35,476 bases of DNA. Origin: an uncultured Candidatus Saccharibacteria bacterium. Lineage in GTDB: Bacteria; Patescibacteriota; WWE3; UBA101185; UBA10185. Shown here in pieces: positions 8,063-35,476 of the stretch. The notes beneath the pieces were generated by a model. It was not told the DNA's origin and searched no databases. It saw only the letters and a program-made list of their open reading frames with translations. The first letter of the stretch is position 1; each line of letters begins with the position of its first letter. The DNA is taken from positions 1-35,476 of the forward strand of contig CAZLHE010000003.1 in assembly GCA_964559585.1 (NCBI GenBank), written 5' to 3'. Both the position numbers and the translations under genes were made by a program.

Positions 8063-8065
8063 AAA

Positions 8066-9199: not shown

Positions 9200-9202
9200 A
9201 AA

Positions 9203-9634: not shown

Positions 9635-10680
9635 TAGGAATTTCCATTAAGTTTCTGAAAATACCACCATTCTGCTCCCCACAGATAGAGATTTTTAAAG
9701 CCTGATTTCTGGGCGTAGCTTATCGTAGATATGAAATCAGCACGGGACATGGTTTTATCCGTCTCGTTTTGTGAGAGTTCTGAGTTAATGCCGGGTCCCC
9801 AAGGTTCCCCTTGGAGTTCAGTAATATAAATCTTATTGACCGGAACCCCAACTAGATTAGCCTTGATTTTATATGTCCAGTAGCTAAGTGGGTATTGGAA
9901 ATATATGAATCTGCCGCCAAAAACGTGCCAAAAGTCATACCAGATCTTTCTATACATCGATATTCCAAGATAGTCTCCAAGTTCATAGGTAGGCCTCCAA
10001 AACCCCCCCTCTCCGCTATCCTGAACAAGAATCGGTCTTTTATCCATGCTTCTTACCAACCCTATTTCTTTTATCACCAGTTCCCTTTTGATTTCAGGTT
10101 TGCTGCATGTTCCAAAAGGCCAGAAAGGCTCGTTTTCCACCTGCCACATCTTTATTGATGAGAAGTCTTTAAATTCTTTTATGGTAGCTTTTATGTAGTT
10201 AAGCAAGGCTTGTTCTCTTAAGGCATCGCTTGGTAACTCCTTCCACCAAGGTGGCTCGAAGCATTCCGGATATCTTGGTACTTTTCTTCCGATAGCTAAA
10301 ATCACGTTTAGATTTCTTTTTTGTGTTTCCTGCATCTGCCATTTAAGGTTTGAGAAGTCATAAACATCCGGATTTTTCTCTATCTCATCCCAATAGGCAA
10401 CCAACCTTACGTTTTTTGCCTTCAGATCATCAAGGATATTTAAGTAGGTTTCTCTCCAATTAAGCCCCATTTGTTCGGAGTATCTGTTAGAAAAAGTGAT
10501 TCCGTAATTAATTTCCTTTTGAACTTTAGGTCTTAGAGCAAAAAAAAGAATTACCGGGGAAATTAAAAGAAGAATCGAAAAAACTAGAATTATTTGGATT
10601 ATTTTAAGGGAAAATAACCTACGAAGCAGCCTCCCTGCTTTTTCAAATTGTCTTTTCAGGGCAGATTTGTGGGTAAACAT
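9601..10680 (-). CDS. membrane-anchored clan GH-A (TIM-barrel) glycoside hydrolase, GH5-like
   Basis: 359 aa with an N-terminal TM span (IIQIILVFSILLLISPVILFFAL). Candidate acid/base is WQVENEP and candidate nucleophile is YITELQGEPW. The exact family was not resolved by eye. Confidence 0.65.
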   Translation of the reverse strand: MFTHKSALKRQFEKAGRLLRRLFSLKIIQIILVFSILLLISPVILFFALRPKVQKEINYGITFSNRYSEQMGLNWRETYLNILDDLKAKNVRLVAYWDEIEKNPDVYDFSNLKWQMQETQKRNLNVILAIGRKVPRYPECFEPPWWKELPSDALREQALLNYIKATIKEFKDFSSIKMWQVENEPFWPFGTCSKPEIKRELVIKEIGLVRSMDKRPILVQDSGEGGFWRPTYELGDYLGISMYRKIWYDFWHVFGGRFIYFQYPLSYWTYKIKANLVGVPVNKIYITELQGEPWGPGINSELSQNETDKTMSRADFISTISYAQKSGFKNLYLWGAEWWYFQKLNGNSYYWDTAKALFK

Positions 10681-10681
10681 C

Positions 10682-11863
10682 CTATTCTCCTAATGAATTA
10701 TTATGGCAGATTTCACCATAGTAATAAAAGGACTTTCTTGGTTTTCTGGCTAAAGTTTTTCTGTCTATTGCAACAAGACCAAATTTTGGCCAGTAACCTT
10801 CGTGCCATTCAAAATTATCAATCAACGACCAATAGAAATACCCTTCCAATTGAACTCCCATTTGCATGGATTCGTAACAAGCAATAAGCATAGCCTTAAT
10901 AAATACTTTTCTAAGTTTATCCTCGGTATCTGCAAGACCGTTTTCTGTTATGTAGATTGGTACCTTATACCTTTTCATATGTAAAAGTACTTTCTTTAAA
11001 CCTTCTGGGTTAATCCACCAATTTAGGTTACTTACCATCCCAGCAGGATGCATGGGTCTTAGATTCTTAATTTGGTTGGTGAGGTAGTAATTTAGACCGA
11101 TTACGTCAACATGTTTTAAAATTGGGTGGATAAAAAAGTTAGAATTAAGGTAAAACAGGAACTTTGCTACAAACTTATCTAAAAAGAAAGGCTTTAGATC
11201 AAAAGTTTCATACCAAACAATGTGTTTGACGATGCCTACTGTGTAGTTACCAACTGATTTTATAGCCTTCGCGGCCTGATTATGCGTTTTCATTAAGATT
11301 AGTTGACATACAAGAGACAGTATCGGGCTTCTTTTGTGCGGCGGCCATATACCGAGTAGATAGCCCATCAAGGTTAAAACTTGCGGTTCGTTAATCGTAA
11401 AAAACACATTAGTTGAAGGTCCCAGTTCTTGAGCGCACTTTTTAGCGTATCTGGCAAAGTACCAAGGAGCTTTTAGATTTGTCCAACCGTGTTTTTTGGC
11501 AAACCAGATTGGGTTTGTAAAGTGATGAAGGGTTACATAAGTTTTTAAGCCTTTATCTCGGGCTGCTTTCAGGACTTTCTTATAATGATCTAATTCTTTT
11601 TGATCAAACACTCCCTCCTTAGGTTCTATTCTTGCCCATTCCACGGAAAGTCTTATTCCGTTGTTGTGCATTTGTTTTGCAAGTTCAAAGTCTTCTTCGT
11701 ATCGGTTATAGGAGTCACAGGCAAGTCCTGATGATTCTAGGGGGTATTTTTGGCCGCGTTTTTTGTTGTGTTCCCACAACCACCAGTCGGTGTTATTGTT
11801 GTTACCTTCAGTTTGATAGGCTGACACTGCCGTGCCCCAAATAAAGTCTGCTGGAAATTTCAT
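10682..11863 (-). CDS. GH1 beta-glucosidase (short form, 393 aa)
   Basis: FIWGTAVSAYQTEGN at the N-terminus, acid/base TINEP, nucleophile YITENG, and C-terminal WSLIDNFEW. Confidence 0.9.
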   Translation of the reverse strand: MKFPADFIWGTAVSAYQTEGNNNNTDWWLWEHNKKRGQKYPLESSGLACDSYNRYEEDFELAKQMHNNGIRLSVEWARIEPKEGVFDQKELDHYKKVLKAARDKGLKTYVTLHHFTNPIWFAKKHGWTNLKAPWYFARYAKKCAQELGPSTNVFFTINEPQVLTLMGYLLGIWPPHKRSPILSLVCQLILMKTHNQAAKAIKSVGNYTVGIVKHIVWYETFDLKPFFLDKFVAKFLFYLNSNFFIHPILKHVDVIGLNYYLTNQIKNLRPMHPAGMVSNLNWWINPEGLKKVLLHMKRYKVPIYITENGLADTEDKLRKVFIKAMLIACYESMQMGVQLEGYFYWSLIDNFEWHEGYWPKFGLVAIDRKTLARKPRKSFYYYGEICHNNSLGE

Positions 11864-12714
11864 ATTTTATCTTGACTGCCAAAGATTTTTATTTTGTATT
11901 CAACAACTTTTTGCATTTCTTCAATCGGTTTTTGCATATATTTATAGGCGGCTATTTCCTTTGTGTTTTTGAGTTCCTGTTCGAGAGTCATTTTGAAAGC
12001 AATTCTTAATTCCGAATTTACATTTATTTTCACAACCCCACATTTAATTGCCTCTTTTATATCTTCTTCTATAATTCCTGACCCACCATGCAAAGAAAGA
12101 AAAGTATTTGGATTTTCTTCATGGATTTGTTTCAGAAGATCCAGATTGAGATGTTTGTTTTCCGAATATATCCCGTGAAGGTTTCCAACAAAACTAGCAA
12201 ACACATCTATGCCAGTTTTTTCTATAAATTCTTTAGCTTTTATAGGGTTTGTATAAAGATTTTTGTTTACATTAGGTTTCTCACTCGTATGGTCGGAAGA
12301 ACTTCCTTCGATGTGGTCTATTTCCCCTTCAATAACCACCCCATTTTTGTGTGCATAGTCTGTAAGTTCTTTACCTATTTTTACAGCCTCTTCAAAAGGA
12401 AGTTTTCCTCCGTCAAAATGTACATAATCAAAGCCTGAGTCTATCGCCTCTTTAATCTTTTCTGGGTCAGTCCCATGATCAAGATTCAAAATTATAGGGA
12501 TGTGAAGTTGTTCCTCAAAAGTTCTTGCTAATGAAACCATTTGAGAAACACCAACGTGTTCAATTTCACCCGGAGAACATTCAATAAGTATCGGTGAGTG
12601 AAGGTTTTTTGCGGCGTTTGTAATTGCCTTTAGAGTTTCAATATTTGCACAATTAAAAGCGCCAATTGCAAATTTCTCTTTCCTTGCTTTTTTAAGATAT
12701 TTTAGTGCATTCAT
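11860..12714 (-). CDS. fba: class II fructose-bisphosphate aldolase
   Basis: 284 aa with AIGAFN, LNLDHG, EGEIDHIEG and SLHGGSG motifs. Its stop overlaps the GH1 start by 4 nt. Confidence 0.88.
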   Translation of the reverse strand: MNALKYLKKARKEKFAIGAFNCANIETLKAITNAAKNLHSPILIECSPGEIEHVGVSQMVSLARTFEEQLHIPIILNLDHGTDPEKIKEAIDSGFDYVHFDGGKLPFEEAVKIGKELTDYAHKNGVVIEGEIDHIEGSSSDHTSEKPNVNKNLYTNPIKAKEFIEKTGIDVFASFVGNLHGIYSENKHLNLDLLKQIHEENPNTFLSLHGGSGIIEEDIKEAIKCGVVKINVNSELRIAFKMTLEQELKNTKEIAAYKYMQKPIEEMQKVVEYKIKIFGSQDKI

Positions 12715-14974: not shown

Positions 14975-15048
14975 ACCGGCGTAGCTCAGTGGCAGAGTAG
15001 CGGTCTCCAAAACCGTTGACGAAGGTTCGATTCCTCCCGCCGGTGCCA
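14975..15048 (+). tRNA. tRNA-Trp (anticodon CCA), 3' CCA encoded
   Basis: ACCGGCG-TA-GCTC-AGTGGCA-GAGT-A-GCGGT-CTCCAAA-ACCGT-TGAC-GAAGG-TTCGATT-CCTCC-CGCCGGT-G-CCA. There is one A-C mismatch in the T stem. Confidence 0.88.
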
Positions 15049-15057
15049 AAATCTGTT

Positions 15058-15063
15058 TATAAT
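15058..15063 (+). promoter_or_regulatory. consensus -10 TATAAT, 6 nt upstream of the trpS ATG
   Basis: TATAAT at 15058-15063, ATG at 15070. The box lies in the 21-nt gap after tRNA-Trp. Confidence 0.35.
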
Positions 15064-15069
15064 AAAAGT

Positions 15070-16101
15070 ATGAGTGAAAACATGAAAAGAGTTTTAACAG
15101 GAATAAGGCCTACAGGTCCTTTGCATTTGGGACACTATGTTGGGGCTTTGAAACAATGGGTTTTACTTCAGGATGAATATGAGTGCTTTTTTATGATCGC
15201 TGATGTTCAAGCTCTAACCACACATGCCGGTAACCCCAAGGTAATTGAAGAATCGGTTAGGGACGTTTTACTAGATTTTTTGGCAGTTGGACTGGATCCG
15301 ACAAAACCTAATGTTCATTTTATACTTCAAAGTGCAATTCCGGAGCTTACTGAGCTTACGGTTTATCTTTCAATGGTAACCCCTTTTACATGGATGCAAA
15401 GCAATCCTACAATTCAGCAAGAAAGCAAAGCCTTGGGTAAAGGAATATCCACAGGTTTTATGTGCTACCCTGTAAGCCAGGCAGCTGATATTTTGTTTGT
15501 TTCCCCTGATCCGGCTGAGTCAAGGGAAGAAATATTAGTCCCAGTTGGTGAAGATCAAGTGCCGCATCTAAGAGATACAAACAGCATTGTCTCCGCCTTT
15601 AATCGCATCTACTCACCAACTTTTAATGAATGCAAACCCTTATTGGGAGATTATCCAAGACTTGTTGGTACAGATGGACAATCGAAGATGTCAAAATCAT
15701 TGGATAACTGTATAAACCTAGGCGACGATGAAAAGACAGTTGAGAAAATGATAAAGGGAATGTTTACTGACCCAAACAGAATTCATCCAAACGACCCGGG
15801 GACAGTTGAGGGGAATCCTGTCTTTATATACCACGATATTTTTAATCCCAATAAGAAAGAAGTTGAGGATTTAAAGAAAAGATACAAGGAAGGAACGGTT
15901 GGGGATGTTGAAGTTAAAGAAAAACTTAACGTAGCCATTCAGTCTTTCTTGAAACCAATAAGAGAAAGAAGAAATCATGCTGAGAAGGTGGATATCAAGA
16001 AGTTTTTGGAAGACGGAACAGATTTTGCAAGAGGTCTTGCAGTTAAAACTTTGAGTAGAACTAGAAAAGCCATGCATTTGGATTATCCAAGTTTAAAGTA
16101 A
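15070..16101 (+). CDS. trpS: tryptophan--tRNA ligase
   Basis: Class I signatures PTGPLHLGHY (HIGH) and KMSKS. The start is set at ATG 15070 (MSENMKRVLTGIRPTG...) because the ORF-track start at 15016 lies inside tRNA-Trp. Confidence 0.93.
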   Translation: MSENMKRVLTGIRPTGPLHLGHYVGALKQWVLLQDEYECFFMIADVQALTTHAGNPKVIEESVRDVLLDFLAVGLDPTKPNVHFILQSAIPELTELTVYLSMVTPFTWMQSNPTIQQESKALGKGISTGFMCYPVSQAADILFVSPDPAESREEILVPVGEDQVPHLRDTNSIVSAFNRIYSPTFNECKPLLGDYPRLVGTDGQSKMSKSLDNCINLGDDEKTVEKMIKGMFTDPNRIHPNDPGTVEGNPVFIYHDIFNPNKKEVEDLKKRYKEGTVGDVEVKEKLNVAIQSFLKPIRERRNHAEKVDIKKFLEDGTDFARGLAVKTLSRTRKAMHLDYPSLK

Positions 16102-16178: not shown

Positions 16179-16253
16179 GCGGGGGTAGCTCAGCCCGGTT
16201 AGAGCGCTACGTTTGATGCGTAGAGGTCGCGCGTTCAAGTCGCGTCCCCCGCT
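16179..16253 (+). tRNA. atypical class I tRNA, apparent anticodon UGA, Gly-type acceptor stem, no encoded CCA; identity unresolved
   Basis: GCGGGGG-TA-GCTC-AGCCCGGTTA-GAGC-G-CTACG-TTTGATG-CGTAG-AGGTC-GCGCG-TTCAAGT-CGCGT-CCCCCGC-T. The anticodon is at 16214-16216. Position 37 is U. The 5-nt variable region is not Ser-like. Confidence 0.7.
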
Positions 16254-16267: not shown

Positions 16268-16409
16268 GTAGGCGTAGCTCAATGGTAGAGCGTCTCCTGG
16301 ATCTACTGATGATTAGGCTTTTATCGGTCCCTTGTGCCGAGCTTTATCCATCCACTGCCTAACATCTTTTATTAGGAGAAGGTTGCTGGTTCAAGTCCGG
16401 TCGCCTACA
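16268..16409 (+). tRNA. tRNA gene with a ~70-nt intervening sequence in the anticodon loop; anticodon unresolved; no encoded CCA
   Basis: A good cloverleaf apart from the loop: GTAGGCG-TA-GCTC-AATGGTA-GAGC-G-TCTCC-[77 nt, 16298-16374]-GGAGA-AGGTT-GCTGG-TTCAAGT-CCGGT-CGCCTAC-A. Confidence 0.65.
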
Positions 16410-20087: not shown

Positions 20088-20277
20088 CTATGAATAAAGT
20101 TGTTTCAAAAGTAAGATACGCCAGTGAACTTATGCCACAAAATCTTAGGAAAAAAGCAATGGAAAAGTAATTTCTAACAAGACACTTTGGAATAATCTTT
20201 TTATTGAGAATTGAGTTCTTTTGAACTACACTTAAAACAACTACCTAGGAACCTTAAAAAACGAATAGGAGAATAAA

Positions 20278-21246
20278 ATGACACCCCATACGAGTGCAGC
20301 AGCGCTGTCAGACTATCTGACCTGTCCGGCTTTGTACTACTTTAAGCACGTACTAAAGCTGAAGGGAATGATTAGTTACCCAATGTTATGTGGAAAGGCG
20401 GTTCATGAGTTTATCGCCGGCATGTATCGACAAAGACCGAAAGGCCGGAAGTTTTTCTATAAATCTCTTGAATCGGCATCAGGGGCGTGGCATTACAAAT
20501 GGTCAACAATGCTTAAGGAAAACGAAGAGTCATTGATGGAGCCCGATAAAGCAACTGCTGGGAAATACCGCAACATCGGGCTTAGATGTATTTCAAACTA
20601 TTGGAATGCTAATGAGTGTAAACCCGATCCAGTCGAAATTGAGCAAAGAAGAAGAATTAAGGTTTTTGGAGTGGATCTAGTTACTGTGTCTGATCAGGTT
20701 AGGGCTGTTAGCAATGAAGTAGTTGCTAGATATAGACCCGATCTTATTTCAGATGGGCAGTTAAATTCCGGCTACTCCCCGCAAGTAATAATTGACATAA
20801 AAACGTCTCTGAGTGATTGGGACAGGGGGAAAGATACATCTGAACTTGCAAAAGCAGGCAATCAGCACCACCTGGCGAGTAGTATTCAAGCCACGGCTTA
20901 TACCAGAGCCTATAAATACTATAACGGTGTGTGGCCAATTGGGTTTTTCTTTTACGCTCTTTACCACAACAAATTTTATTTTGTGTCGGTAGAAGATGAG
21001 GAGAGCCAAAAAAGATTAGATGAAGTCATCCTTCATTTAGTCAGGAATTTGAATTGCGAGTCTTTTCCGAAACACCCTACCCTAAACTGCAGAAATTGTG
21101 TGTGTCTACAACACTGCTTGGGAGAAAAAGGGATTCAGATATCTATAAATACAGACTCTCTAAGCGGTCCTGACATAAGACACATCTTCAAAAGAGAATG
21201 GAAAAGTAACCAACCAAAACAATTGAGATTTAAATTTCCTAGGTAA
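20278..21246 (+). CDS. PD-(D/E)XK nuclease with a Cas4/AddB-type 4-Cys (4Fe-4S) signature (orphan Cas4-like / RecB-family exonuclease)
   Basis: 322 aa. N-terminal SDYLTCPALYYFKH; GKAVHEF; IIDIKTS (D-x-K); QATAY (RecB-family QxxxY). C-terminal CRNCVCLQHC gives C-x2-C-x5-C, which with Cys16 completes the 4-Cys signature. AGGAG SD at 20267-20271. Confidence 0.75.
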   Translation: MTPHTSAAALSDYLTCPALYYFKHVLKLKGMISYPMLCGKAVHEFIAGMYRQRPKGRKFFYKSLESASGAWHYKWSTMLKENEESLMEPDKATAGKYRNIGLRCISNYWNANECKPDPVEIEQRRRIKVFGVDLVTVSDQVRAVSNEVVARYRPDLISDGQLNSGYSPQVIIDIKTSLSDWDRGKDTSELAKAGNQHHLASSIQATAYTRAYKYYNGVWPIGFFFYALYHNKFYFVSVEDEESQKRLDEVILHLVRNLNCESFPKHPTLNCRNCVCLQHCLGEKGIQISINTDSLSGPDIRHIFKREWKSNQPKQLRFKFPR

Positions 21247-24382: not shown

Positions 24383-24557
24383 ATAATTAAAAGACTGAAA
24401 GGATGATAGCACAAAAAAAACTACCGGAGAATGTGCTTGTTCTGCGACCCTGGAAATATAACGTGTTTAATCGAAGAAAAAAAAGACATAAAATGTTGTG
24501 TACATTATAACTGATTTTTACTTAGAGCTTAATTATGTTATTTTCTTACTAGAAGGA

Positions 24558-24563
24558 TAGAAT
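24558..24563 (+). promoter_or_regulatory. -10-like TAGAAT, 7 nt upstream of the ATG at 24571
   Basis: TAGAAT at 24558-24563. Confidence 0.35.
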
Positions 24564-24570
24564 TCTCAAA

Positions 24571-25698
24571 ATGAAAAAAGCTAAGGCAAGGATACTTATT
24601 CTATACGCATCGGTAGGAAATGGGCATCGGGTTGCTGCTACTGCGGTAGAAGAGACGCTTAAATCAATAGATAAAGATATCGTGGTTGCTAAAAAGGATC
24701 TGTTTGATTTCTCTAAGGCAAAAATCGCGGCTCCAATATCAAAGCTTCACACAAAATCTAAAATAACCGGAGCAATTTACGATTTTCTTTGGAAAAGTGA
24801 AAATTTAAACAAGATTGGAGAAAAAATTCTACCCATAATTTTTGACAACTTTTCCCCGCTAAGAAAATATGTATTAACCTCCAAACCAAATGTCGTTATA
24901 TGTACACATGCTCTGGCAGCTCAACTAATTTCAGACATAAGACAGAAAAGTAAGTTAAATTTTAAACATGTAGTTATAATTACGGACTTTCGACCCCATT
25001 CTTATTGGTCAGTGCCTCAAGTGGATCTATACTGTGCTCCAGATGTAGCGGCAAAGCTTGATTTAATAAAACTAGGAGTAGCTGGTAACAAAATAATGGT
25101 GACAGGAATACCTCTACGGAAGCAGTTTTTAGAATCTAAAAAAAATCATGGGGGCTTTATAGATAGAAAATTCAAAGGAGTCATAATTATCACAGGAGAT
25201 ATACAAAAAGATAAGGGTCTGTCCATCACCAAAGGTGCTAACCAATTAATTGGTTCTTTGAAGAAATTAGGTATACATACAACTGTAGTGTGCGGACGCA
25301 ATATAAAGCTTAGAAGAGCCTTGACTAAATACTACAAAAAATATGTACAAGCTGGCAGACTGAGAATATTTGGCTACGTAGATAAAATTGCTGATTTAAT
25401 TAAACAACACAGTGTATTAATTACTAAACCCGGTGGGTTAATATGCGCAGAAGCATTGGCATTAAACATACCTACTGTCTTAATTAGGTCGGATTATGGA
25501 GGACAAGAAGATGCGAATTCCCAATACCTTGTTGATAATGGTTTTGCTGTAGCAGTAAAAACTATGTCTGCGATACCAAGTATTATTCTCGAGTTATCAA
25601 CCGGGTCTGTTTTATCAGAGATAAGGGAAAAAATTAGACTTCTGCCTAAGAGAAATTCCCCAAAGATAATTAGTGATGAGGTTTTAAAGATTTCTTAA
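24571..25698 (+). CDS. diacylglycerol glycosyltransferase (MGDG synthase/UgtP-like, GT28)
   Basis: 375 aa. N-terminal ILILYASVGNGHRVAATAVEE and C-terminal ITKPGGLICAEALALNIPTVLI match the MGDG-synthase / GT28 pattern. Confidence 0.78.
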   Translation: MKKAKARILILYASVGNGHRVAATAVEETLKSIDKDIVVAKKDLFDFSKAKIAAPISKLHTKSKITGAIYDFLWKSENLNKIGEKILPIIFDNFSPLRKYVLTSKPNVVICTHALAAQLISDIRQKSKLNFKHVVIITDFRPHSYWSVPQVDLYCAPDVAAKLDLIKLGVAGNKIMVTGIPLRKQFLESKKNHGGFIDRKFKGVIIITGDIQKDKGLSITKGANQLIGSLKKLGIHTTVVCGRNIKLRRALTKYYKKYVQAGRLRIFGYVDKIADLIKQHSVLITKPGGLICAEALALNIPTVLIRSDYGGQEDANSQYLVDNGFAVAVKTMSAIPSIILELSTGSVLSEIREKIRLLPKRNSPKIISDEVLKIS

Positions 25699-25722
25699 TT
25701 TTAAAACTCGGCGATTTTAGAT

Positions 25723-26436: not shown

Positions 26437-26444
26437 TGTTTTGA

Positions 26445-26450
26445 ATTATA
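26445..26450 (-). promoter_or_regulatory. consensus -10 TATAAT (minus strand), 8 nt upstream of the pyrH ATG
   Basis: Plus-strand attata at 26445-26450, ATG at 26436. Confidence 0.4.
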
Positions 26451-26727
26451 GACCCTTTAGACATGTTCTCCAAAACCTTTAGATTTTTCTGGACAGCGGA
26501 TAAATTTTTAATAGGGAAAAGTTACAGATTTGACATCTCAGTGAACTTATATATTTAGTGCGCCTAATATTGCTATGATAACGAAAGACCTGGCTGGCCG
26601 CGTGGGAATTTGTTGGAACTGTTTGTTGCTATAGCAGGAAAAGTCATTAGATAATAAAACTAAAAATAATCCTCGGTAACCTTACCTTAAACTCCTCTGT
26701 CCTGTAGAATGATTTAAGAGAAAAAGT

Positions 26728-29700
26728 ATGAACAATAAGATAAATTTCTACACATTAGGGCGGGATTTATCCATAAAGAAAAAATTTCCCTCAAAAAGGT
26801 TGTTTTCGCTGTTTAAATCAAATGAAGAATTAGATTACAAGAGCCTATTTATTGGAATAAACGATCTATACACCTATTTGGTTGTGGAATACGAAAAAAA
26901 TCCCGAGATAGTGCCATTGTCCGCCTCTTGGATTTTAGACAATTATTATTTAATCAGTCAGCAGTCTGTAATTTTTAAGGATACATTCAAACCAAAAATA
27001 CTCAAGAAGCTTCCTTTAGTGGAATACGAAAATATATATTTTCAAGTTCATTATATTGCTAAAAAGTATCTTGAAATTACGAGCTGCGAATTTTCACAAG
27101 AGAGCCTCATACCGTTTCTTAAGGGGTATCAGAAAATTTACCCGTTATCTAGTGTGGAGTTGTGGATTTTACCTACTGTGATAAGATACGAACTCCTCCG
27201 CTCCTTATTAATTAGAGGTCAGGAGATAAAGGAAAAGATACAGAACGGTAAGTTTGCTAATCGAGTTGTGGAAGAAATTTCATTAAATCTAAGTAAGGGA
27301 AAAAATCCAATTAAGAGGGTGAGAAAAATTTTGCATGTAGCAGACATAAATCCACACGTTTTGTTATCAGTATTAGAAGATATTCGAGAATTGGACTATC
27401 GCGTAGAGGATACCTTGGAACTTATTGAAGGGAAAATTCACGAAGATGACCTTAACTTAGAGGAATTTACCCGTGCAAGTGTCTTGAGAGATCTAGACTT
27501 AAAACAAAATCTAAATAATACGGTTACCTCCATAAAAAACTTTTCGTACATTAATTGGAATAAGCTTTTCAACAGAGTAAGTATCGTGGAAAGTACCCTG
27601 ATGAACGATCCCGCAAATGTTTATCCTTTGATGGATGAGATTAGTAAAGATAGGTATCGACATGTTATTGAAGATATGAGTGTTAATAGCAATTTTAGTG
27701 AATCCGAGATTGCAAGAAAGGTGGTTGAGACTGCAGAGGCTTCTAATATTGATATACAACGCCACGTGGGTTTTCACTTAATTGATAACGGTTATTTTGA
27801 ATTTTCCAACAAAGTGGGGTTTAAGCCGTCCTTAAAGGGAAAGATCAAAGACCTAATGAAAAAGCATCCCTATATTAGCTACATAGGAAGTATTGTTTTT
27901 TTAACCTTTTTATTTTCTGCTATTTCCTTTTTAGTTTTTGTCAGCATTACGCACCATACAAGTTTTGTAGTCTTGGCCTTGATATCACAACTAATACCTG
28001 TTTCTAATATTTCTATTTTCTTCGTCAATAAAATATTTATACTTTTTCTACCTCCGGCACTTCCACCTAAAATTGACTTAGTTGATCGGGTACCTGAAGA
28101 TTGTAAAACTCTGATTGTCGTTCCGTGTTTATTACCCAGTAACGAAAAAATTGATAGTTTAGTCAGTGACCTGGAAAAAAGGTTTTTGTCAAATAAATAC
28201 AACAATCTTTATTTTGCTTTGCTTAGTGACTACAAAGACTCAAATGAAATAGAGTCGGAGGAAGATAAGAAACCGCTTTTATATTTGAGGAGGAAGATTA
28301 GGAAGTTGAATCTCAAGCACCGTGCGGCGGGATTTGATGTATTTTATCTATTTCATAGGAATCGTTTGTTTAATGAAAAGGAAAATGTGTGGATGGGTTG
28401 GGAGAGAAAAAGAGGAAAACTTCTGGAGCTGGTAGACTGGTTAACCCGGAAAAAAGATAGCATTGCTACCACTTTCTCGGTTATAGACGGTAACATAGAT
28501 AAATTACAAAATATAAAATACGTTATAACGCTTGATGAAGATACTATGCTACCGGCGGACATCTCGCTTAAACTCATCGGTGCAATGACTCATCCGCTTA
28601 ATGTACCTGTTCTGGACCACGGAAAAAAAATTGTTGTACGTGGTTACGGCTTTATACAACCCAAAATTATAATAGAGCCTGAGGCGGAAAACCTGTCCCC
28701 TTTCACCAAGATATTTGTCGCAGAAAGTGGCTACGATTCCTACTCCACCGCTGTTTCAGATATTTACCAAGATTTATTTAATAGATCTAACTTTATGGGT
28801 AAAGGAATTTTTGACGTTTGGGCGATCAAAGAAAGTTTGGGAGAAAGATTTCCTGAAAATAAGCTTCTAAGTCACGATTTAATAGAGAGTTGTTTTGCAA
28901 AAGCCGGGTTTTTATCCGACACGAGTTTAATGGAAGAATTTCCTTCCGCCTTCCGCAGTTACTTATCAAGAGATAATCGTTGGGTACGAGGAGACTGGCA
29001 ACTCTTACCCTGGTTGTTACCACATATTGTTACAACTGATGGTAGGAAGATTAAAAACCCATTAGATCTACTATCTTATTGGATGATAGTAGATAATCTT
29101 AGAAGAAGTTTGGTTTTGCCGGCCTACTTACTTTTGTTTGTGTTAGGGTGGCTATTTATACCATCTGCCCTTTTGACTTTCTATATTGCGGTTTTGTTTT
29201 TCGCCCCTCTTTTTATTGATATTTTTAGTATTAAAAAATTTATTGTTCACAAAATACCCTTTGTAGAAAAGCTAAAACTTTCCTTAATTTTTATGATCGG
29301 AAAAACCACTTTCATATTTACGTCTTTCGTCCTTCTGTGGTCATTAGCTTTTAATAAAGTTAACGCCGTCATCACGACGCTTTATCGCTTAAGTCTTAAC
29401 AGGCGCCTACTGGAGTGGACCACGCATAGAGACGTGGAACAGCTAAAGAGTAAACAAAACAGTGTTTGGGACTTACTAATTTCAAAGTTCACTTTTTTCA
29501 ATTTGGTTATTCTAGCTGCGCTATTTTTATTAAATAGATTTTCTTTTCTTAATATTTCTATTATAGTTCTCTGGGCTCTTTCACCTTTATATATTTTTTA
29601 TATAAGTAAGCTCTACCCAAAACCTAAATTTTCAGACCAGATAAAAGACAAAGAAAAAATGCTTTTTTACGCTAAAAAGATATGGTCATTTTTTGAAGAG

Positions 29701-32700
29701 TACACGAATGAAGAAAGTAACTACCTTCCACCGGATAACTTACAACTATCTCCTGTAAAAAAAGTTACATACAGGACTTCTCCCACCAATATAGGGTTCT
29801 ACCTTTTGTCTCTTTTATCTTCCTATGATCTCAATATTATAGATTTAGACAATTTATTGGATAAACTAGAAAAAACCTTGGGCACTTTGTATAAACTGCC
29901 TAAATATAGGGGCCATATCTACAACTGGTATGACCTAAAAACTTTGGAACCTCTGAATCCTTACATTTCTACAGCAGACAGCGGTAACTTTGTAGTCTCC
30001 TTGATGTTACTGGAGTCTTCGTGTTTATCTTTATCCCAAGATATAAAAAAGGAAAGTGTAGAACAATCTAAAAGATTACTGAAGCTTTCACACCTAATTA
30101 AGAGATTGTATACAAAAACTGACTTTACCTTTTTGTACGACAAAGATCTGTCTATATTTTCTATAGGATTTAACACTCTCACGAAGAAAAAAGACGGCAG
30201 TTATTACGATCTCTTAGCGTCTGAGGCGCGTATTGTAAGTTACGTTGCCATAGCCTTAGATCAAGTGGAACTTAAGCATTGGTTTAAACTAGGGCGTCCT
30301 CTTAGAGTAAGAAATGGAAAATTTTATCTAATGTCCTGGGGAGGTACTATATTTGAGTATCTTTTACCGACTCTGCTTTTTAACGAAAAAAATAACACAA
30401 TTTTAAGTCAGACGAGTAGAGAGATTTATTACTTTCAAAAAAAATATGCCGCAGATAATGGAATTCCCTTTGGTGTGTCTGAATCAAACTTTGATGCTTT
30501 TGATTTTGACTATAATTATCAATATAAAATGATGGGCGTTCCTGGTTTGGCGCTAAAAAGATACGATACCAAAGATTTGGTAGTTTCTCCGTATTCTACT
30601 TTTTTGTCATTGATGATAAACCCAACCGAAGCTGAAGAAAATCTACATTTACTTGAAAATGAAGGAGTTTTTGGAGCATATGGATTTTTTGAATCTGTAG
30701 ATTTTAATAGATCGGTGGAAAATCCTAAGAAAGGGGAAAATGTAAAAATTTACACAGCGCACCACCAAGGTATGAGTTTGGTAGCTATAAATAATGTCCT
30801 TAATGAGAAAATAATGATAGATAGATTGCAAAAAAATGATTACATAAAATCTTGTGAGGTGTTGTTAGATGAGAAAATACCTGAAGTCTCAAATGTTGTA
30901 GAGCCAAATCAATACACTCTTGATAGAAGACTCACGTTAGTTAGGAAATTTGAAAAAGAGAGGGTTCGATATTCTAATACTCCAAATACTTTATTCCCAT
31001 TGGCACAAATATACGGAAATGGGAGCTACATGCTTATGATCACAAATTCTGGGGCGAGTTACAGCAAATTTAAAGACACCTACATTAATAGATTTAACGA
31101 GGACTTTACTTTGGATAGTTCTGGAAGCCATATCTATATTAAGGATGTGGATCTTAATTACGCGTGGTCCGCTACGTATCAGCCTACATTAACAAATCCC
31201 GATGAATATGAGGTGAAGTTTTATGCTGAGTACGCCCAATTTCATAGAATAGACAAGAAAACAGAAACTGAACTAAATATTTTCGTACCGCCGGAAAAGA
31301 ACTTTGAAATAAGGGAATTAACTTTATCTAATAAATCAAGTATGTCCAAATCTTATGAGATAACTACTTATACAGAAATAATGTTAGATGAATATAAATC
31401 AGGAATTAACCACCCTGCGTTTAATAAGCTGTTTATAGAAACCGACTATGAAAATGGCATGTTAACCGCCAGAAGAAAAAAAAGGTATTTCCATGACATA
31501 GAAAAATATGCTTTTCATTTTGCATTTTCTGAAGATGGCGACTTGTCTGTGGATTCATATGACACAAGCAGACCAAACTTTGTCGGTAGGTTAAAATCTG
31601 TACAAAATCCCGCTGCCTTAAATTCTGCACTTACCAATAGTGTGGGTACGGTTCTCGATCCTATTTTTAGTCTACGTTATAAAGTTAATGTTAAGCCCGG
31701 AGAGACAAGGAAAATACATTTTGTGTATGGGTACGCTGCCAACTTACATGAGGTTAGAGCAACAAAGGATTTACTTTTTTCGAAAGAGGAAATACAGGAA
31801 TTACGTTATTTGAATAGCCATTATATTGAAGCTAAGAGGACTCATTTAGGAATTGACGTGAGACAGGAGCTTAGTTTCCAAAAGGTTGCTTCGAGATTAG
31901 TTTATTCAGACCATCGTTTGAAAGAACAAATTAATATTGATTACACCAAAGAAAAAAGAATTTTATACAGATTTGGTATTTCGGGAGAAAACAAATTACT
32001 AGTGTTAAAAGTAAATAGTAAAAACATTGAATTAGTAAGAAATATGGCTCTCTTACACGAATACTTCAGACTTTTAAGATTTCGGTTTGACCTTGTATTT
32101 ATAATTGACGAAACACAGAGTTACGAGGAGAACCTAGAACGCGGTGTTTACGAAGTTATCGAAACTTCTCTACCCCATCCTTATAAAGATTCGGGGGTTT
32201 ATACACTAAATGTAAATAACATGTCCCTTGAGGAGAGATTTACATTACTGTCTTTGGCAAGAATCGTTTTTGACACGTCTTTAGGTTCTTTAGACGAACA
32301 GATCAACTTTGCTTCAAGCTCTGGCACACCCGACACGGTTGCCTTTAAAGAAGCAGCACAACAGGAATTAATTGGGAGTATCAGTTTAGTAAAAAATGTT
32401 AGTGAGGATCTAATTTATTACAATGGGTTAGGAGGTTTTACGTCTGAAGGAAAAAGTTATGTTATTAAGTTTTCTCCGGAAAACCCAACTCCCCTACCGT
32501 GGTCAAATGTGATCTCAAACGAAAAATTTGGCACATTGGTTACAGAATCGGGTTTGGGTTATACATGGAACATTAATAGCCAAATAAATAAAATTACTCC
32601 TTGGTCAAATGACTTTGTAAGCGATCCGCAAGGTGAAGTTTTGTATCTTAAGGATTTGGATTCGGGGAGTATTTTTAGTGCCACACCATTGCCTAATAAG

Positions 32701-34791
32701 AGCGGCGAGTTTAAAGTAACACACTCCCAGGGCTACTCTGAATTTATAGGTAAAAATGGAAATATAGAGCACACATTAAAGGTATTTGTAGATAAACAGG
32801 ATCCTGTGAAGATATTAAAGCTAACTTTAGCAAATAATAGTAATTATAGTAAGAAGATAGAGTGTTCCCATTACGTTGAATTTGTTTTAGGGGAGCATGG
32901 GAATTTAACTCAAGAAAACCTAAATATTAAATTTGAATCTGTAAGGCAAAGCATAATTGCTAGAAATCTTTTTAACGATTCCTTTACAAATCAGTTAGCT
33001 TTTATGGCTACAAGCAGACCAATAATTGCGGCAACTTCGGACAGGAAGAAATTTTTTGGCAGAGGTAGCTCTAGAAAAACACCGTTGTGGGTGTTGAATA
33101 ATAAGAAAGGTGTTACAGGGTTCAAGTCCGTTTCTGATAAATGCGGGGTTTTAACTACTGAAGTGGAAATTCCAAGTAACTCCCAAGTAAGTTTAGTATT
33201 TTTATTAGGACAAACTGATGAAATTGACAATGTAGGTTCATTAATTGATAAGTACACTAGTTTAGACCGGGTAGATAAAAGTTTTGAAGAAGTAAAGGAA
33301 TTATGGAACAAGCTTCAGTCTACTATTACGGTTAAAACCCCAGATAGTAAATTTGATTACCTGGTGAATAACTGGCTCCTTTACCAAGTGTTGTCCTGCC
33401 GTTTATATGGGCGAACATCTTTCTATCAAGCAGCAGGAGCTTTTGGTTTTAGAGATCAGTTGCAGGATGTTATGGCTCTGGTTTATGCCGACCCTAAGAA
33501 ATTAAGGAATCATATAATTTTATGCTGTGGCCACCAATTTAAAGAAGGAGATGTGCAACACTGGTGGCACTATCCGTCAAATGCGGGTGTTAGAACAAAA
33601 ATCAGTGACGATTTGTTGTGGCTTCCTTATGTAGTGAGTTACTACATTGAAAAAACCGGAGACACCGGTATCTTAAATGAAGAAGTTTCCTATTTAGAAA
33701 TGCAGGCTTTAGAACAGCACGAAGAAAGTGTATATGGTATTCCTAGCGTTTCGGGGGAACGAGGTAATGTGCTTGATCACTGTTTGAGGGCCATAAATAA
33801 ATCCCTAAATTTTGGAGCTCACGGACTGCCTTTAATTGGTTCCGGTGACTGGAACGATAGTTTAAATAGCGTAGGAGACGAGGGAAAAGGAGAAAGTGTC
33901 TGGTTAGGGATGTTTCTATTTGCTGTGTTAGATAACTTTACGGAAGTTTTAGAAAATACTGACCATAAAGAAGAATTATCCAGATATATGTCAGTTTCCG
34001 AAGAACTTAAGAAAAATCTAGATGTAAGTGGTTGGGATGGGGATTGGTATATAAGAGCTTTTTACGATGATGGTACTCCTTTGGGTTCCCATATTAATAA
34101 CGAATGTATCATTGACTCTATCTCGCAATCGTGGAGTGTAATTTCTAAAGTAGCAGCTCCTGAAAAGGCAATAAAAGCTATGGAAAGTCATGAAAAATAT
34201 CTTGAAAATAAGGATAGGAAGCTAATTAACTTACTCACACCACCTTTTAAGGACTCAGCACCTTTCCCGGGGTATATACAAGGTTATCCTGAGGGAATAA
34301 GGGAAAACGGGGGGCAGTATACGCACGGAGCGCTTTGGGCCGTGAGAGCCTACGCGATGCAAAAAAGAGGAGATAAAGCCTATGAATTGTTCGATATGCT
34401 AAACCCAATTAGTCGTTCGCTTGACAAAAAGAGCGTAGCAGAATACAAATCTGAACCTTACGTAATGGTAGCGGATGTCTACTCTAATCCACAACATTTG
34501 GGAAGGGGCGGTTGGAGTTGGTACACAGGATCAGCGGGTTTGATTTATCGTATTGGTATAGAAGATATATTGGGTTTTAAGAAGTATCCTGATTTCTTCA
34601 CTTTGGATCCGGTTATTCCAGGAGTTTGGGATGCCTTTGAGATGAAGTACACTTATGGAAAGACTACCTATAATATAAATGTTAAAAGAGGTGAGAACAC
34701 GGGTTTGTACATAGGTGGCAAAAAGTCTGATGAAAATAAAGTATTTTTAAAGGATGATATCGGGGATATAGAGGTTTCTTTAGTTATCTAA
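26728..34791 (+). CDS. giant multidomain cyclic beta-1,2-glucan synthase-like protein (N-terminal domain, GT84, TM block, central alpha-helical domain, C-terminal GH94)
   Basis: Uninterrupted 2,687-aa frame. Processive-GT motifs are LDEDT (nt 28531-28545) and RWVRGDWQLLPW (nt 28978-29013). Hydrophobic clusters lie at about aa 385-450 and 790-960. GH94-like motifs are FRDQLQD (nt 33448-33468), GDWND (nt 33844-33858) and ENGGQYTHGALW. Size and domain order match Cgs/NdvB/ChvB. Confidence 0.85.
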   Translation: MNNKINFYTLGRDLSIKKKFPSKRLFSLFKSNEELDYKSLFIGINDLYTYLVVEYEKNPEIVPLSASWILDNYYLISQQSVIFKDTFKPKILKKLPLVEYENIYFQVHYIAKKYLEITSCEFSQESLIPFLKGYQKIYPLSSVELWILPTVIRYELLRSLLIRGQEIKEKIQNGKFANRVVEEISLNLSKGKNPIKRVRKILHVADINPHVLLSVLEDIRELDYRVEDTLELIEGKIHEDDLNLEEFTRASVLRDLDLKQNLNNTVTSIKNFSYINWNKLFNRVSIVESTLMNDPANVYPLMDEISKDRYRHVIEDMSVNSNFSESEIARKVVETAEASNIDIQRHVGFHLIDNGYFEFSNKVGFKPSLKGKIKDLMKKHPYISYIGSIVFLTFLFSAISFLVFVSITHHTSFVVLALISQLIPVSNISIFFVNKIFILFLPPALPPKIDLVDRVPEDCKTLIVVPCLLPSNEKIDSLVSDLEKRFLSNKYNNLYFALLSDYKDSNEIESEEDKKPLLYLRRKIRKLNLKHRAAGFDVFYLFHRNRLFNEKENVWMGWERKRGKLLELVDWLTRKKDSIATTFSVIDGNIDKLQNIKYVITLDEDTMLPADISLKLIGAMTHPLNVPVLDHGKKIVVRGYGFIQPKIIIEPEAENLSPFTKIFVAESGYDSYSTAVSDIYQDLFNRSNFMGKGIFDVWAIKESLGERFPENKLLSHDLIESCFAKAGFLSDTSLMEEFPSAFRSYLSRDNRWVRGDWQLLPWLLPHIVTTDGRKIKNPLDLLSYWMIVDNLRRSLVLPAYLLLFVLGWLFIPSALLTFYIAVLFFAPLFIDIFSIKKFIVHKIPFVEKLKLSLIFMIGKTTFIFTSFVLLWSLAFNKVNAVITTLYRLSLNRRLLEWTTHRDVEQLKSKQNSVWDLLISKFTFFNLVILAALFLLNRFSFLNISIIVLWALSPLYIFYISKLYPKPKFSDQIKDKEKMLFYAKKIWSFFEEYTNEESNYLPPDNLQLSPVKKVTYRTSPTNIGFYLLSLLSSYDLNIIDLDNLLDKLEKTLGTLYKLPKYRGHIYNWYDLKTLEPLNPYISTADSGNFVVSLMLLESSCLSLSQDIKKESVEQSKRLLKLSHLIKRLYTKTDFTFLYDKDLSIFSIGFNTLTKKKDGSYYDLLASEARIVSYVAIALDQVELKHWFKLGRPLRVRNGKFYLMSWGGTIFEYLLPTLLFNEKNNTILSQTSREIYYFQKKYAADNGIPFGVSESNFDAFDFDYNYQYKMMGVPGLALKRYDTKDLVVSPYSTFLSLMINPTEAEENLHLLENEGVFGAYGFFESVDFNRSVENPKKGENVKIYTAHHQGMSLVAINNVLNEKIMIDRLQKNDYIKSCEVLLDEKIPEVSNVVEPNQYTLDRRLTLVRKFEKERVRYSNTPNTLFPLAQIYGNGSYMLMITNSGASYSKFKDTYINRFNEDFTLDSSGSHIYIKDVDLNYAWSATYQPTLTNPDEYEVKFYAEYAQFHRIDKKTETELNIFVPPEKNFEIRELTLSNKSSMSKSYEITTYTEIMLDEYKSGINHPAFNKLFIETDYENGMLTARRKKRYFHDIEKYAFHFAFSEDGDLSVDSYDTSRPNFVGRLKSVQNPAALNSALTNSVGTVLDPIFSLRYKVNVKPGETRKIHFVYGYAANLHEVRATKDLLFSKEEIQELRYLNSHYIEAKRTHLGIDVRQELSFQKVASRLVYSDHRLKEQINIDYTKEKRILYRFGISGENKLLVLKVNSKNIELVRNMALLHEYFRLLRFRFDLVFIIDETQSYEENLERGVYEVIETSLPHPYKDSGVYTLNVNNMSLEERFTLLSLARIVFDTSLGSLDEQINFASSSGTPDTVAFKEAAQQELIGSISLVKNVSEDLIYYNGLGGFTSEGKSYVIKFSPENPTPLPWSNVISNEKFGTLVTESGLGYTWNINSQINKITPWSNDFVSDPQGEVLYLKDLDSGSIFSATPLPNKSGEFKVTHSQGYSEFIGKNGNIEHTLKVFVDKQDPVKILKLTLANNSNYSKKIECSHYVEFVLGEHGNLTQENLNIKFESVRQSIIARNLFNDSFTNQLAFMATSRPIIAATSDRKKFFGRGSSRKTPLWVLNNKKGVTGFKSVSDKCGVLTTEVEIPSNSQVSLVFLLGQTDEIDNVGSLIDKYTSLDRVDKSFEEVKELWNKLQSTITVKTPDSKFDYLVNNWLLYQVLSCRLYGRTSFYQAAGAFGFRDQLQDVMALVYADPKKLRNHIILCCGHQFKEGDVQHWWHYPSNAGVRTKISDDLLWLPYVVSYYIEKTGDTGILNEEVSYLEMQALEQHEESVYGIPSVSGERGNVLDHCLRAINKSLNFGAHGLPLIGSGDWNDSLNSVGDEGKGESVWLGMFLFAVLDNFTEVLENTDHKEELSRYMSVSEELKKNLDVSGWDGDWYIRAFYDDGTPLGSHINNECIIDSISQSWSVISKVAAPEKAIKAMESHEKYLENKDRKLINLLTPPFKDSAPFPGYIQGYPEGIRENGGQYTHGALWAVRAYAMQKRGDKAYELFDMLNPISRSLDKKSVAEYKSEPYVMVADVYSNPQHLGRGGWSWYTGSAGLIYRIGIEDILGFKKYPDFFTLDPVIPGVWDAFEMKYTYGKTTYNINVKRGENTGLYIGGKKSDENKVFLKDDIGDIEVSLVI

Positions 34792-34844
34792 TAAACCATC
34801 CCCTTCTCTTTCAATAATGATACTATTTTATAGATACTCATTTT

Positions 34845-35476
34845 ATGAAAAAAGAAATTCTCGACTCAATATTTAGAGCTTACGATATCAGAGGCAAGTA
34901 TCCCTCGCAGTTGAATAAAGAATTCTACGAGTGTCTTGGAAAAGCTTATGTGACCTTTTTTAAACCAAGAAAGGTGGTTATAGGTTATGATATGAGACCG
35001 GAAAGTGTTGAGTTAAAAGGAGCTCTGATAGATGGTGTGCGCCAAATGGGTTGTGATGTTGTAGATTTGGGAGAAATTGCCACCGAGATGCTATATTTTG
35101 CCGTTGGGGAGAACCATAATACATTTAACGGAGGTATTGTAATCACCGCTTCTCACAATGGAGTCGGTTGGAATGGCTGTAAGCTGGTAACTAAGAAAGC
35201 GAAACCAGTTAGCGGTATAACCGGTCTAATGGATTTAAAAAGAATAATTTTGGAGGATAGATACGAAAAGGTTTCAGAAGAAGTGGGTACTTTAGAAGAG
35301 TTAGACATATATCCAGCATATAGAGATAAGGTTTTATCCTTTATAACTTCCAAAAACAGGTGTCCTTTAAATATAGTTGTTGATGCCGGCAACGGTATGG
35401 GCGGAAAAGTCTTTGATTATGTTTTTGATAAATTGGATATAGATGTAGAGAGGATGTATTTCAATCCGGATGGAAC
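34845..35476 (+). CDS. phosphomannomutase/phosphoglucomutase (alpha-D-phosphohexomutase), partial (N-terminal ~210 codons)
   Basis: My translation from ATG 34845 is MKKEILDSIFRAYDIRGKYP...GGIVITASHNGVGWNGCKL... It contains the RAYDIRG and active-site TASHN motifs and runs off the right edge. It is absent from the ORF track because it has no stop in the window. Confidence 0.85.
   Translation, partial: MKKEILDSIFRAYDIRGKYPSQLNKEFYECLGKAYVTFFKPRKVVIGYDMRPESVELKGALIDGVRQMGCDVVDLGEIATEMLYFAVGENHNTFNGGIVITASHNGVGWNGCKLVTKKAKPVSGITGLMDLKRIILEDRYEKVSEEVGTLEELDIYPAYRDKVLSFITSKNRCPLNIVVDAGNGMGGKVFDYVFDKLDIDVERMYFNPDG

Follow-up and report, generated by a model that had tools for sequence, protein, structure and literature searches.

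A complete candidate synthase of cyclic beta-1,2-glucan with a phosphohexomutase partner in a bacterium of the candidate phyla radiation

Cyclic beta-1,2-glucans are familiar above all from Proteobacteria, where they protect against osmotic stress in the periplasm and take part in interactions with hosts. Here we analyze a 35,476-nt stretch of DNA from an uncultured bacterium (contig CAZLHE010000003.1; hereafter the window), in which the longest open reading frame (ORF; 26728..34791, + strand, ATG start, 2,687 amino acids [aa], 22.7% of the window) very probably encodes a synthase of cyclic beta-1,2-glucan (Cgs) working in the manner proposed below, with a phosphohexomutase as its partner. The host is securely a member of the candidate phyla radiation (CPR, or Patescibacteria). 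Bacteria of this radiation have genomes of roughly 1 Mb and very limited biosynthesis, and are thought to depend on other cells. Judged from its sequence, the protein appears to be a complete Cgs in a new kind of host: it has the catalytic and architectural traits on which membership of the Cgs/ChvB/NdvB family was judged and is mechanistically unsurprising. A complete and selectively maintained synthase in a CPR bacterium would extend this enzyme to organisms of very limited biosynthesis, and it offers a concrete, cloneable candidate for a CPR surface or host-interaction glycan. A literature search of partial coverage found nothing linking CPR, Patescibacteria, Saccharibacteria or TM7 with Cgs. 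The Cgs family is very widespread, which limits the novelty of the finding, and annotation of such a gene as Cgs is routine, one member of the window's clade being already so named.

Architecture and catalytic residues of the synthase

The initial annotation described a single uninterrupted frame of 2,687 codons filling about 23% of the window, in agreement with our measurement, and a chance origin of an open frame this long is ruled out by our own estimate that about 7% of random codons at 37% GC are stops. When the product was searched against all PDB sequences (phmmer), the best matches were the cryo-EM structures of Agrobacterium tumefaciens Cgs, 8RF0 and 8RF9 (1,527 bits), collinear with it over aa 47-2656 in two adjoining stretches (aa 47-1101 and aa 1093-2656). 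The first stretch aligns with 8RF0 at E ~1e-157, and the homology of the N-terminal half is therefore settled. Next in rank were the crystal structure 8WY1 (cyclisation domain of Thermoanaerobacter italicus) and then cellobiose and chitobiose phosphorylases. The Pfam domains run in the order weak GT2-like match (Glyco_trans_2_3, aa 598-825), DUF3131/Glycoamylase (aa 981-1368, in the cyclase region), a pair of GH94 supersandwich domains and then the catalytic domain of GH94 (PF17167, aa 2193-2616, E 3.9e-111). This order and the collinearity with 8RF0/8RF9 support the full Cgs/NdvB/ChvB domain order and size claimed at the outset, with each module falling in its expected profile family and none in an unrelated one. 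Public records name one clade member 'cyclic beta-1,2-glucan synthetase' (JGI) and others 'glucoamylase family protein' or 'DUF3131 domain-containing protein' (NCBI).

The two clusters of transmembrane (TM) helices described earlier correspond to hydropathy peaks at aa ~385-440 and ~795-960, giving about two plus about four hydrophobic segments on either side of the glycosyltransferase (GT) domain, as expected for a six-TM Cgs; these helix counts, from a simple Kyte-Doolittle scan, are approximate. The solved A. tumefaciens enzyme has six TM helices in all and keeps all its catalytic domains in the cytoplasm, and its GH94 module serves chain-length control (PMC10901819). Compared with that enzyme (ChvB; 8RF0/8RF9/8RFE; orthologues Brucella Cgs and Sinorhizobium NdvB), the window protein has the same domain order, a like 2 + 4 arrangement of TM helices, all catalytic residues and the primer tyrosine, and no break in the stretch that aligns with the Rossmann-like subdomain lying between GP1 and GP2. 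It is about 130 aa shorter, mainly lacking a counterpart of residues ~1122-1223 of the A. tumefaciens protein (At), and its gene has a tightly linked phosphohexomutase and no adjacent chvA/ndvA-type ATP-binding cassette (ABC) exporter. The hosts also differ, the present one being a CPR bacterium; such bacteria presumably have no outer membrane or periplasm. Over its C-terminal ~760 aa the protein can be aligned with cellobiose phosphorylases from one end to the other (E 1e-74), and it keeps the catalytic Asp as well as the His and Thr that bind phosphate in GH94 phosphorylases (cellobiose, chitobiose and 1,2-beta-oligoglucan phosphorylase). Unlike the stand-alone catabolic GH94 enzymes, this module is fused to a synthase and would by analogy have the chain-length role that it has in Cgs (PMC10901819).

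All motifs quoted in the initial annotation were located in the order given, namely LDEDT (aa 602-606) and SRDNRWVRGDWQLLPW (aa 747-762), followed by FRDQLQD (aa 2241-2247), GDWND (aa 2373-2377) and GGQYTHGALW (aa 2528-2537). The proposed D,D,QxxRW-type pattern does not hold as a literal QxxRW, since alignment to the Agrobacterium Cgs gives an SR-x-x-RW type instead (SRDNRW here, SRQHRW there). Functional residues were mapped through pairwise alignments from the sites in PMC10901819 and PMC10834661 and then checked in a 119-sequence alignment (Table 1). The active site of GT84 is made up of a UDP-binding Asp pair, the base Asp and the RW motif (At D527, D624/D626, D739 and R773-W774). In the window protein, D603 and D605 sit in LDEDT, D717 (At D739; PMC10901819) is the catalytic base, and R2242-D2243, at FRDQLQD, are key residues of the GH94 half. 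The GT84 key residues are unchanged in 11/11 members of the window's clade and in at least 118 of the 119 homologues, and the primer position is a tyrosine in all 119; across the clade, the GT84, GH189 and GH94 key residues and the primer tyrosine are all invariant. No catalytic residue of GT84 or GH94 is substituted, and all residues predicted to be needed for the proposed catalytic steps are in place.

Comparison with the 83%-identical orthologue at locus L024 (Nei-Gojobori) gave a dN/dS of 0.09 overall at a dS of ~1 (0.99), with regional values of 0.07 for the N-terminal domain, 0.075 for the GT domain, 0.19 for the second TM cluster, 0.07 for the cyclase and 0.10 for the GH94 half. With so low a ratio at so high a dS, cgs is under strong, long-term purifying selection.

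Proposed mechanism and the compact cyclase domain

By homology to the Agrobacterium enzyme, the protein would be held in the cell membrane by some six helices and have its catalytic domains all on the cytoplasmic side. Its GT84 domain would use UDP-glucose to glucosylate its own Tyr672 and then extend a beta-1,2 chain; the GH94 half would trim over-long chains with phosphate, releasing glucose 1-phosphate (Glc-1-P); and the (alpha/alpha)6 GH189 domain, with E1252 as nucleophile and E1166 as acid/base, would transglycosylate the chain onto itself and release a ring of ~17-25 glucoses. The mutase would link Cgs to glycolysis in both directions, supplying Glc-1-P for UDP-glucose and recycling the Glc-1-P that is trimmed off. 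A cyclic beta-1,2-glucan with a degree of polymerisation of ~17-25 is thus the product and ring size that we predict by analogy. As to its physiological role, we would rank osmoprotection or an envelope function first and host-cell interaction second; osmoprotection in the cytoplasm or envelope, or a reserve, would explain the data as well as the action at the cell-cell interface that had been suggested.

The cyclase domain matches 8WY1 with a phmmer E-value of 1.3e-107. An AlphaFold2 model of aa 960-1400 (confidence scores pLDDT 86.6 and pTM 0.91) still forms a closed (alpha/alpha)6 barrel about as large as that of a glucanase, and in Foldseek comparisons with 8WY1 and with the cyclase domain of 8RF0 it reached query-normalised TM-scores of 0.84-0.86, in line with the assignment of this region as a Cgs cyclisation domain; against GH144/GH162-type beta-1,2-glucanases the scores were about 0.70-0.73. 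The nucleophile, acid/base, E1210 and His pair correspond to those of TiCGS-Cy (T. italicus; founding member of GH189, the CGS cyclisation or beta-1,2-glucanotransferase domain; 8WY1), and the present host is, like T. italicus, presumably a monoderm. The target-normalised TM-score to 8WY1 is only 0.65 (query-normalised 0.84) because helices of 8WY1 are absent from the window domain, and these helices have been described as unique to CGS enzymes (PMC10834661). The whole clade is without the variable 60-200-aa segment after aa ~1106 (0 residues in 167 majority columns), so that the helical insertion of GH189 is a feature not found in the window protein.

The compact form is common in the family. 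In an exhaustive search of representatives, an uninterrupted cyclase match is seen in 51 of the 150 nearest 50%-identity representatives and the compact form in 39 of 102 aligned full-length proteins, one of them in a Firmicute-like context; the cyclase domain alone matches 2,111 50%-identity clusters at E <= 1e-30. Compact metagenomic homologues (~2,650-2,760 aa; among them P0393, P0012 and P0398) are 45-51% identical to the window protein and all without the insertion; P0012 and P0393 branch beside the clade, and loci of such homologues (L018, L028 and L029) have no downstream mutase, the gene context of L028 being Firmicute-like. An origin of the compact cyclase as the clade's own invention was rejected, given the 51 compact representatives and the compact sisters P0012 and P0393. 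Both enzymes characterized to date are of the long type, and the compact cyclase is a widespread, uncharacterized subtype, a subfamily trait that gives no ground for exclusion from the family. The window protein could accordingly serve as a natural minimal Cgs, for structure-function work on what determines ring size when the cyclase insertion is missing.

Compactness bears on a different reading of the gene, in which the enzyme's main product is linear beta-1,2-glucan or oligosaccharides, or a cytoplasmic carbon reserve that is cycled (UDP-glucose to chain, chain to Glc-1-P by GH94, and on to glycolysis via the mutase), and not an exported cyclic glucan. Such a reading would account for a cyclase without the CGS-unique helices (PMC10834661) and of a size like that of endo-beta-1,2-glucanases (TM-score normalised to target ~0.75), for the lack of an ABC exporter nearby, for a mutase pairing that is clade-specific and absent from the non-CPR loci among L006-L017, and for the presence of a GH1 beta-glucosidase and a ROK sugar kinase in the same window. 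The GH144/GH162 endo-beta-1,2-glucanases (Chitinophaga pinensis SGL, 5GZH; Talaromyces SGL, 6IMU) do share the (alpha/alpha)6 fold at near-equal size, with TM-scores of 0.70-0.76 in both normalisations and 12-20% identity; they are, however, inverting hydrolases, and the window domain has the GH189 nucleophile Glu and His pair instead (PMC10834661). In addition, the cyclase nucleophile, acid/base, E1210 and H1345/H1346 are all invariant, the cyclase is under purifying selection like the rest of the protein (dN/dS 0.07), compactness of this degree occurs in about a third of the nearest representatives of the family, and in TiCGS it is substrate length that sets whether the product is cyclic or linear, with no known role of the insertion (PMC10834661). 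We hold a mainly linear or reserve product to be quite improbable and prefer a cyclising synthase.

Several points nevertheless weigh against a Cgs that works with its mutase partner as proposed. The biochemistry behind this reading comes from homologues outside the clade. The segment missing from the cyclase (At ~1122-1223; ~1142-1293 of the T. italicus protein, Ti) is present in both characterized enzymes, and since this helical insertion is lacking, cyclisation efficiency or ring size could differ. The mutase is nearest to PMM/PGM models yet below every NCBIfam equivalog cut-off; its class appears to be of the PGM/PMM type, within which PGM, PMM and GlmM are not separable by these cut-offs. 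No UDP-glucose pyrophosphorylase was seen in the window, and a scan for Walker A and LSGGQ motifs over ~10 kb found no ABC exporter of the Cgt/ChvA/NdvA kind in the window or in ten related loci (nine relatives and the window's twin contig L019; L025 lay outside the scan). Finally, the closest genome (GCA_018813105.1; 458-kb contig L020) has histidyl-tRNA synthetase (HisRS) and histidine-utilisation genes past pyrH and no cgs-pgm there, and the cgs-pgm module is accessory rather than core, being dispensable for this closest relative.

In Proteobacteria, cyclic glucan is exported by the dedicated ABC transporter Cgt/ChvA/NdvA, whose gene adjoins the synthase gene in Agrobacterium and Sinorhizobium. 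A further-reaching proposal would be that cyclic beta-1,2-glucans are made by the CPR bacteria of this lineage and delivered to their surface or to a host cell, as in Brucella, Agrobacterium and rhizobia, by means of a streamlined Cgs, carried on a 9.6-kb cgs-pgm module that close relatives gain, lose or relocate, and a route of export other than Cgt/ChvA. We regard this as unlikely; if true, it would give the candidate phyla radiation its first candidate for a symbiosis factor of polysaccharide nature.

At L025 a MacB-type ABC transporter and adaptor lie 1-5 kb from cgs. In four relatives (Table 1) the cgs-mutase pair is closely followed by the gene for a conserved protein of 437 aa, which has several hydrophobic segments, matches no Pfam family and is a possible membrane partner. 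Within the window, a ROK sugar kinase (8369-9199, +), a GH1 beta-glucosidase (10682-11863, -) and a class II fructose-bisphosphate aldolase (11860-12714, -) are clustered; L001 likewise has ROK and GH1 genes, L003 and L005 have GH1 in part, and the aldolase is found again in L002 and L003. A GH1 enzyme acting on beta-1,2-gluco-oligosaccharides has reportedly been described recently in Streptomyces (PMC12369401).

The cgs-mutase pair, its host and its clade

The identity of the host was examined through marker genes. Tryptophanyl-tRNA synthetase (TrpRS) and PyrH have their nearest named matches, at 96% and 95% identity, in NCBI metagenome-assembled genomes (MAGs) named 'Patescibacteria group bacterium'; further named matches are WWE3 (67-68%), Woesebacteria and Portnoybacteria for TrpRS, and Roizmanbacteria, Shapirobacteria and Amesbacteria for PyrH. 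Orthologues of cgs, the ATPase and the YdjM-family gene (in some cases also TrpRS, aldolase and GH1) occur in the same order on MAG contigs labelled 'uncultured Candidatus Saccharibacteria' or 'Patescibacteria group'. Because the named TrpRS and PyrH neighbors are all CPR and these orthologues lie on such contigs, membership of the radiation is secure. The ENA records of five relatives (L002-L005 and L011) bear the label 'uncultured Candidatus Saccharibacteria bacterium', in conflict with the WWE3/Microgenomates-type TrpRS and PyrH neighbors, and no named Saccharibacteria protein occurs in the top 120 of either search. We have not adopted this label, and the TrpRS and PyrH markers leave the class at the level of CPR/Patescibacteria. 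The earlier picture of a compact genome agrees with a coding plus tRNA density of 93% across the window; as for a small-genome episymbiont, the CPR affiliation and this density stand, but episymbiosis is only an extrapolation from cultured CPR bacteria.

The clade of the window protein (P0001-P0011) has eleven members with identities of 62-83%, of which ten are full-length and 2,686-2,692 aa long. Neighbor-joining trees recover it as monophyletic in 100/100 bootstraps, with P0012 (51% identical) as sister, followed by P0393, P0015 and P0014; P0014 is 44% and P0015 40% identical, and the rest are at ~40%. Since the clade is monophyletic and outsiders are only ~40% identical, these trees argue against recent transfer from a sampled donor, the horizontal acquisition for which a phylogeny had been suggested as a test. 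Recent acquisition is likewise not supported by the host-like composition (cgs against the rest of the window: GC 35.8% and 37.1%, GC at third codon positions [GC3] 33.7% and 34.6%, codon-frequency r 0.89) or by the ATPase-cgs linkage common to distant relatives. No donor lineage was identified, the contigs of the neighbors P0012, P0393, P0015 and P0014 carrying no taxonomic signal.

The downstream gene encodes an alpha-D-phosphohexomutase, 467 aa long in the twin contig L023, which starts 53 nt past the cgs stop. As had been noted, this gap contains no terminator-like hairpin. A mutase gene directly follows cgs in ~10/11 loci of the clade (window/L023, L024, L001-L005, L009 and L014, and in truncated form L011), at a distance of 8-53 nt (8-50 nt in the relatives); it is absent beside cgs in the non-CPR loci among L006-L017, in the sister locus L018 and in L025. 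Between L023 and L024 the sole homologous DNA (blastn) is one collinear 9.6-kb block of 83% identity, which begins 48 nt before the cgs ATG and ends 51 nt beyond the mutase stop. On the basis of this conserved tight pairing and single collinear block we regard cgs and pgm as a unit of two genes that very probably form an operon, and the co-transcription suggested earlier is well supported by synteny. Synonymous divergence between L023 and L024 differs about three-fold within the block (dS 0.99 for cgs, 0.35 for the mutase), which may reflect recombination within the module or codon constraints. In L004, cgs is split into two overlapping ORFs of 1,214 and 1,547 aa (2356-10574), and in L011 the mutase is without domain I (9759-10643); these represent frameshifts, decay or assembly errors.

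In the 291-nt upstream intergenic region, a promoter scan found a sigma-70-like hexamer pair at 26626-26655, and the last 48 nt of the leader are conserved with L024. A genus-specific motif of ~30 nt lies at 26590-26619, CTGGCTGGCC..GGGAA..GGAAC (consensus YTGGCTGRSC-N-GGG-N-GAAC). In two genomes, directly oriented copies lie on both sides of the pair, upstream of cgs and downstream of the mutase, and the genus has a few other copies in intergenic regions. The motif is absent from relatives at a greater distance and matches no Rfam family; it could serve as a regulatory site or be a repeat prone to recombination. No riboswitch or known RNA was detected in the leader or downstream of pgm, no Rfam family scoring above noise.

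The closest genome found, whose arrangement recurs in Logan contigs L021 and L022, is 88-93% identical to the window in nucleotide sequence across the genes for a 517-aa protein, the ATPase, a 116-aa protein and PyrH, and synteny breaks exactly at the pyrH/cgs junction, near 26460. No Cgs more than 83% identical is present in a collection of 5.8 billion proteins that includes the GCA_018813105.1 MAG proteins, for which reason cgs-pgm seems absent from this relative as assembled; its absence from the locus is also why we call the module accessory. The abrupt break invites the suspicion of a chimeric or mis-binned contig, with the gene coming from a non-CPR organism such as a low-GC Firmicute, and a compact Cgs does occur in the Firmicute-like context of L028. 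Yet a second assembly (Logan SRR13007705, L019/L023) shows the same junction at 100% identity over 9,749 nt, so that an assembly artefact is ruled out as its source; GC, GC3 and codon usage do not shift across it; and the more distant relatives L001, L002, L003 and L005 have cgs together with ATPase and YdjM-family orthologues (in some cases TrpRS, aldolase and GH1) on one contig, with the same ATPase-cgs order. We consider a chimera extremely unlikely.

A variable location also raises the question of whether the 9.6-kb cgs-pgm cassette is a passenger that moves between CPR genomes with little or no role for the cell. This would agree with its absence from the syntenic locus of a genome 88-93% identical at the nucleotide level, with its unrelated context in L024 (between genes for YkuD and Ddl), with the short direct motif flanking the block in both genomes, with the split cgs of L004 and truncated mutase of L011, and with the serine recombinase near cgs in L025. 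A passenger, however, would not be expected to show long-term purifying selection (dN/dS 0.09 at dS ~1), a length held at 2,686-2,692 aa in ten clusters of 65-83% identity, or a fully host-like composition. Moreover, cgs lies ~2-3 kb downstream of an MgtA-like ATPase in L001, L002, L003 and L005 as in the window, the filler genes differing, and this shared position points to loss in the close relative and not to recent gain in the window. We therefore think it very doubtful that the pair is a mere passenger; the most economical interpretation is that the module ancestrally lay near the ATPase and was later lost or relocated in some lineages. The earlier argument that an 8-kb gene implies strong selection is thus borne out as regards purifying selection, but has to be set against an accessory module missing from the locus of the closest genome. 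Presence or absence of the pair in near-identical genomes is a polymorphism that could be correlated with habitat or host.

Two window segments are absent from L020. The first (20106-21213) includes a PD-(D/E)XK nuclease-family gene (20278-21246), and the second (24459-25720) a monogalactosyldiacylglycerol synthase/GT28-like glycosyltransferase gene (24571-25698), a predicted user of UDP-sugar, in place of which L020 has six other genes. The most divergent clade member, on the 486-kb scaffold L025 (513-2321 and 18755-22861), has a cgs without adjacent mutase, flanked on one side by a serine recombinase, heavy-metal ATPase and ImpB/UmuC region and on the other by a MacB-type ABC system.

Feature positions and minor observations

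Table 1. Positions of the cgs and mutase features, mapped residues and associated elements (window coordinates or residues of the window protein unless a locus is named)
Feature	Position or residues	Strand	Extent, counterpart or basis
Upstream intergenic region	26437..26727	+	291 nt; motif, promoter scan, conserved leader end
cgs N-terminal scaffold domain	26728..27867	+	aa 1-~380; aligns from At Cgs residue 72 on
cgs first hydrophobic cluster	27880..28047	+	aa ~385-440, ~2 TM; Kyte-Doolittle; aligned with 8RF0 TM1-2 region
cgs GT84 glycosyltransferase domain	28048..29109	+	aa ~441-794; residue mapping to At Cgs
cgs second hydrophobic cluster	29110..29604	+	aa ~795-959, ~4 TM; hydropathy scan
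cgs cyclase/GH189 domain, compact form	29605..30927	+	aa 960-1400; 8WY1 match, AlphaFold2 model
cgs GH94-type phosphorylase half	30928..34791	+	aa 1401-2687 and stop; Pfam, 8RF0 alignment
cgs-mutase gap	34792..34844	+	53 nt, no terminator-like hairpin
Phosphohexomutase gene, 5' part	34845..35476	+	NCBIfam and Pfam PGM_PMM domains I-IV; conserved cgs partner
GT84 residues	D501, R560, D603, D605, D717, R751/W752, R754		At D527, R586, D624, D626, D739, R773/W774, R776
Primer tyrosine	Y672 (in GYDSYST)		At Y694 (GIDPY694VF), IF1-homology loop
Cyclase residues, At numbering	S1081, D1084, E1166		At S1101, D1104, E1300
Cyclase residues, Ti numbering	E1166 (acid/base), E1210, E1252 (nucleophile), H1345, H1346		Ti E1356, E1400, E1442, H1536, H1537
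GH94 residues	D2243, D2377 (catalytic acid, GDWND)		At D2393 (substrate-binding), D2528
GH94 phosphate site	H2533, T2600		Phosphate-binding His and Thr of GH94 phosphorylases
Copies of the ~30-nt motif	window 26590-26619; L023 19566, 19670; L024 1986, 11705, 13686, 14293; L020 13881
437-aa protein	L002 19834-21147; L003 19803-21116; L004 13710-15023; L011 10995-12308		Hydrophobicity, Pfam negative

Elsewhere in the window, a GGDEF diguanylate cyclase domain protein is encoded at 6633-7415 (-; Pfam E 7.5e-42) in this CPR genome. A tRNA-Trp gene (14975-15048, +) lies directly upstream of the TrpRS gene (15016-16101, +); the mechanical TTG start of the TrpRS ORF overlaps the tRNA, and the real start is probably ATG 15070, since homologues are 339-346 aa long. 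The 75-nt tRNA at 16179-16253 (+) has the anticodon UGA (Ser), a short 5-nt variable loop and U37; bacterial tRNA-Ser has a long variable arm as a rule. Close by, at 16268-16409 (+), is a tRNA-like gene (Rfam, 51 bits) that was absent from the relatives' loci compared and was not called by ARAGORN. Its acceptor, D, anticodon and T stems are intact, with 77 nt in place of the 7-nt anticodon loop; the insert of ~70 nt is too short for a group I intron, and the minimum free energy fold keeps the cloverleaf arms and forms the insert into a hairpin of its own.

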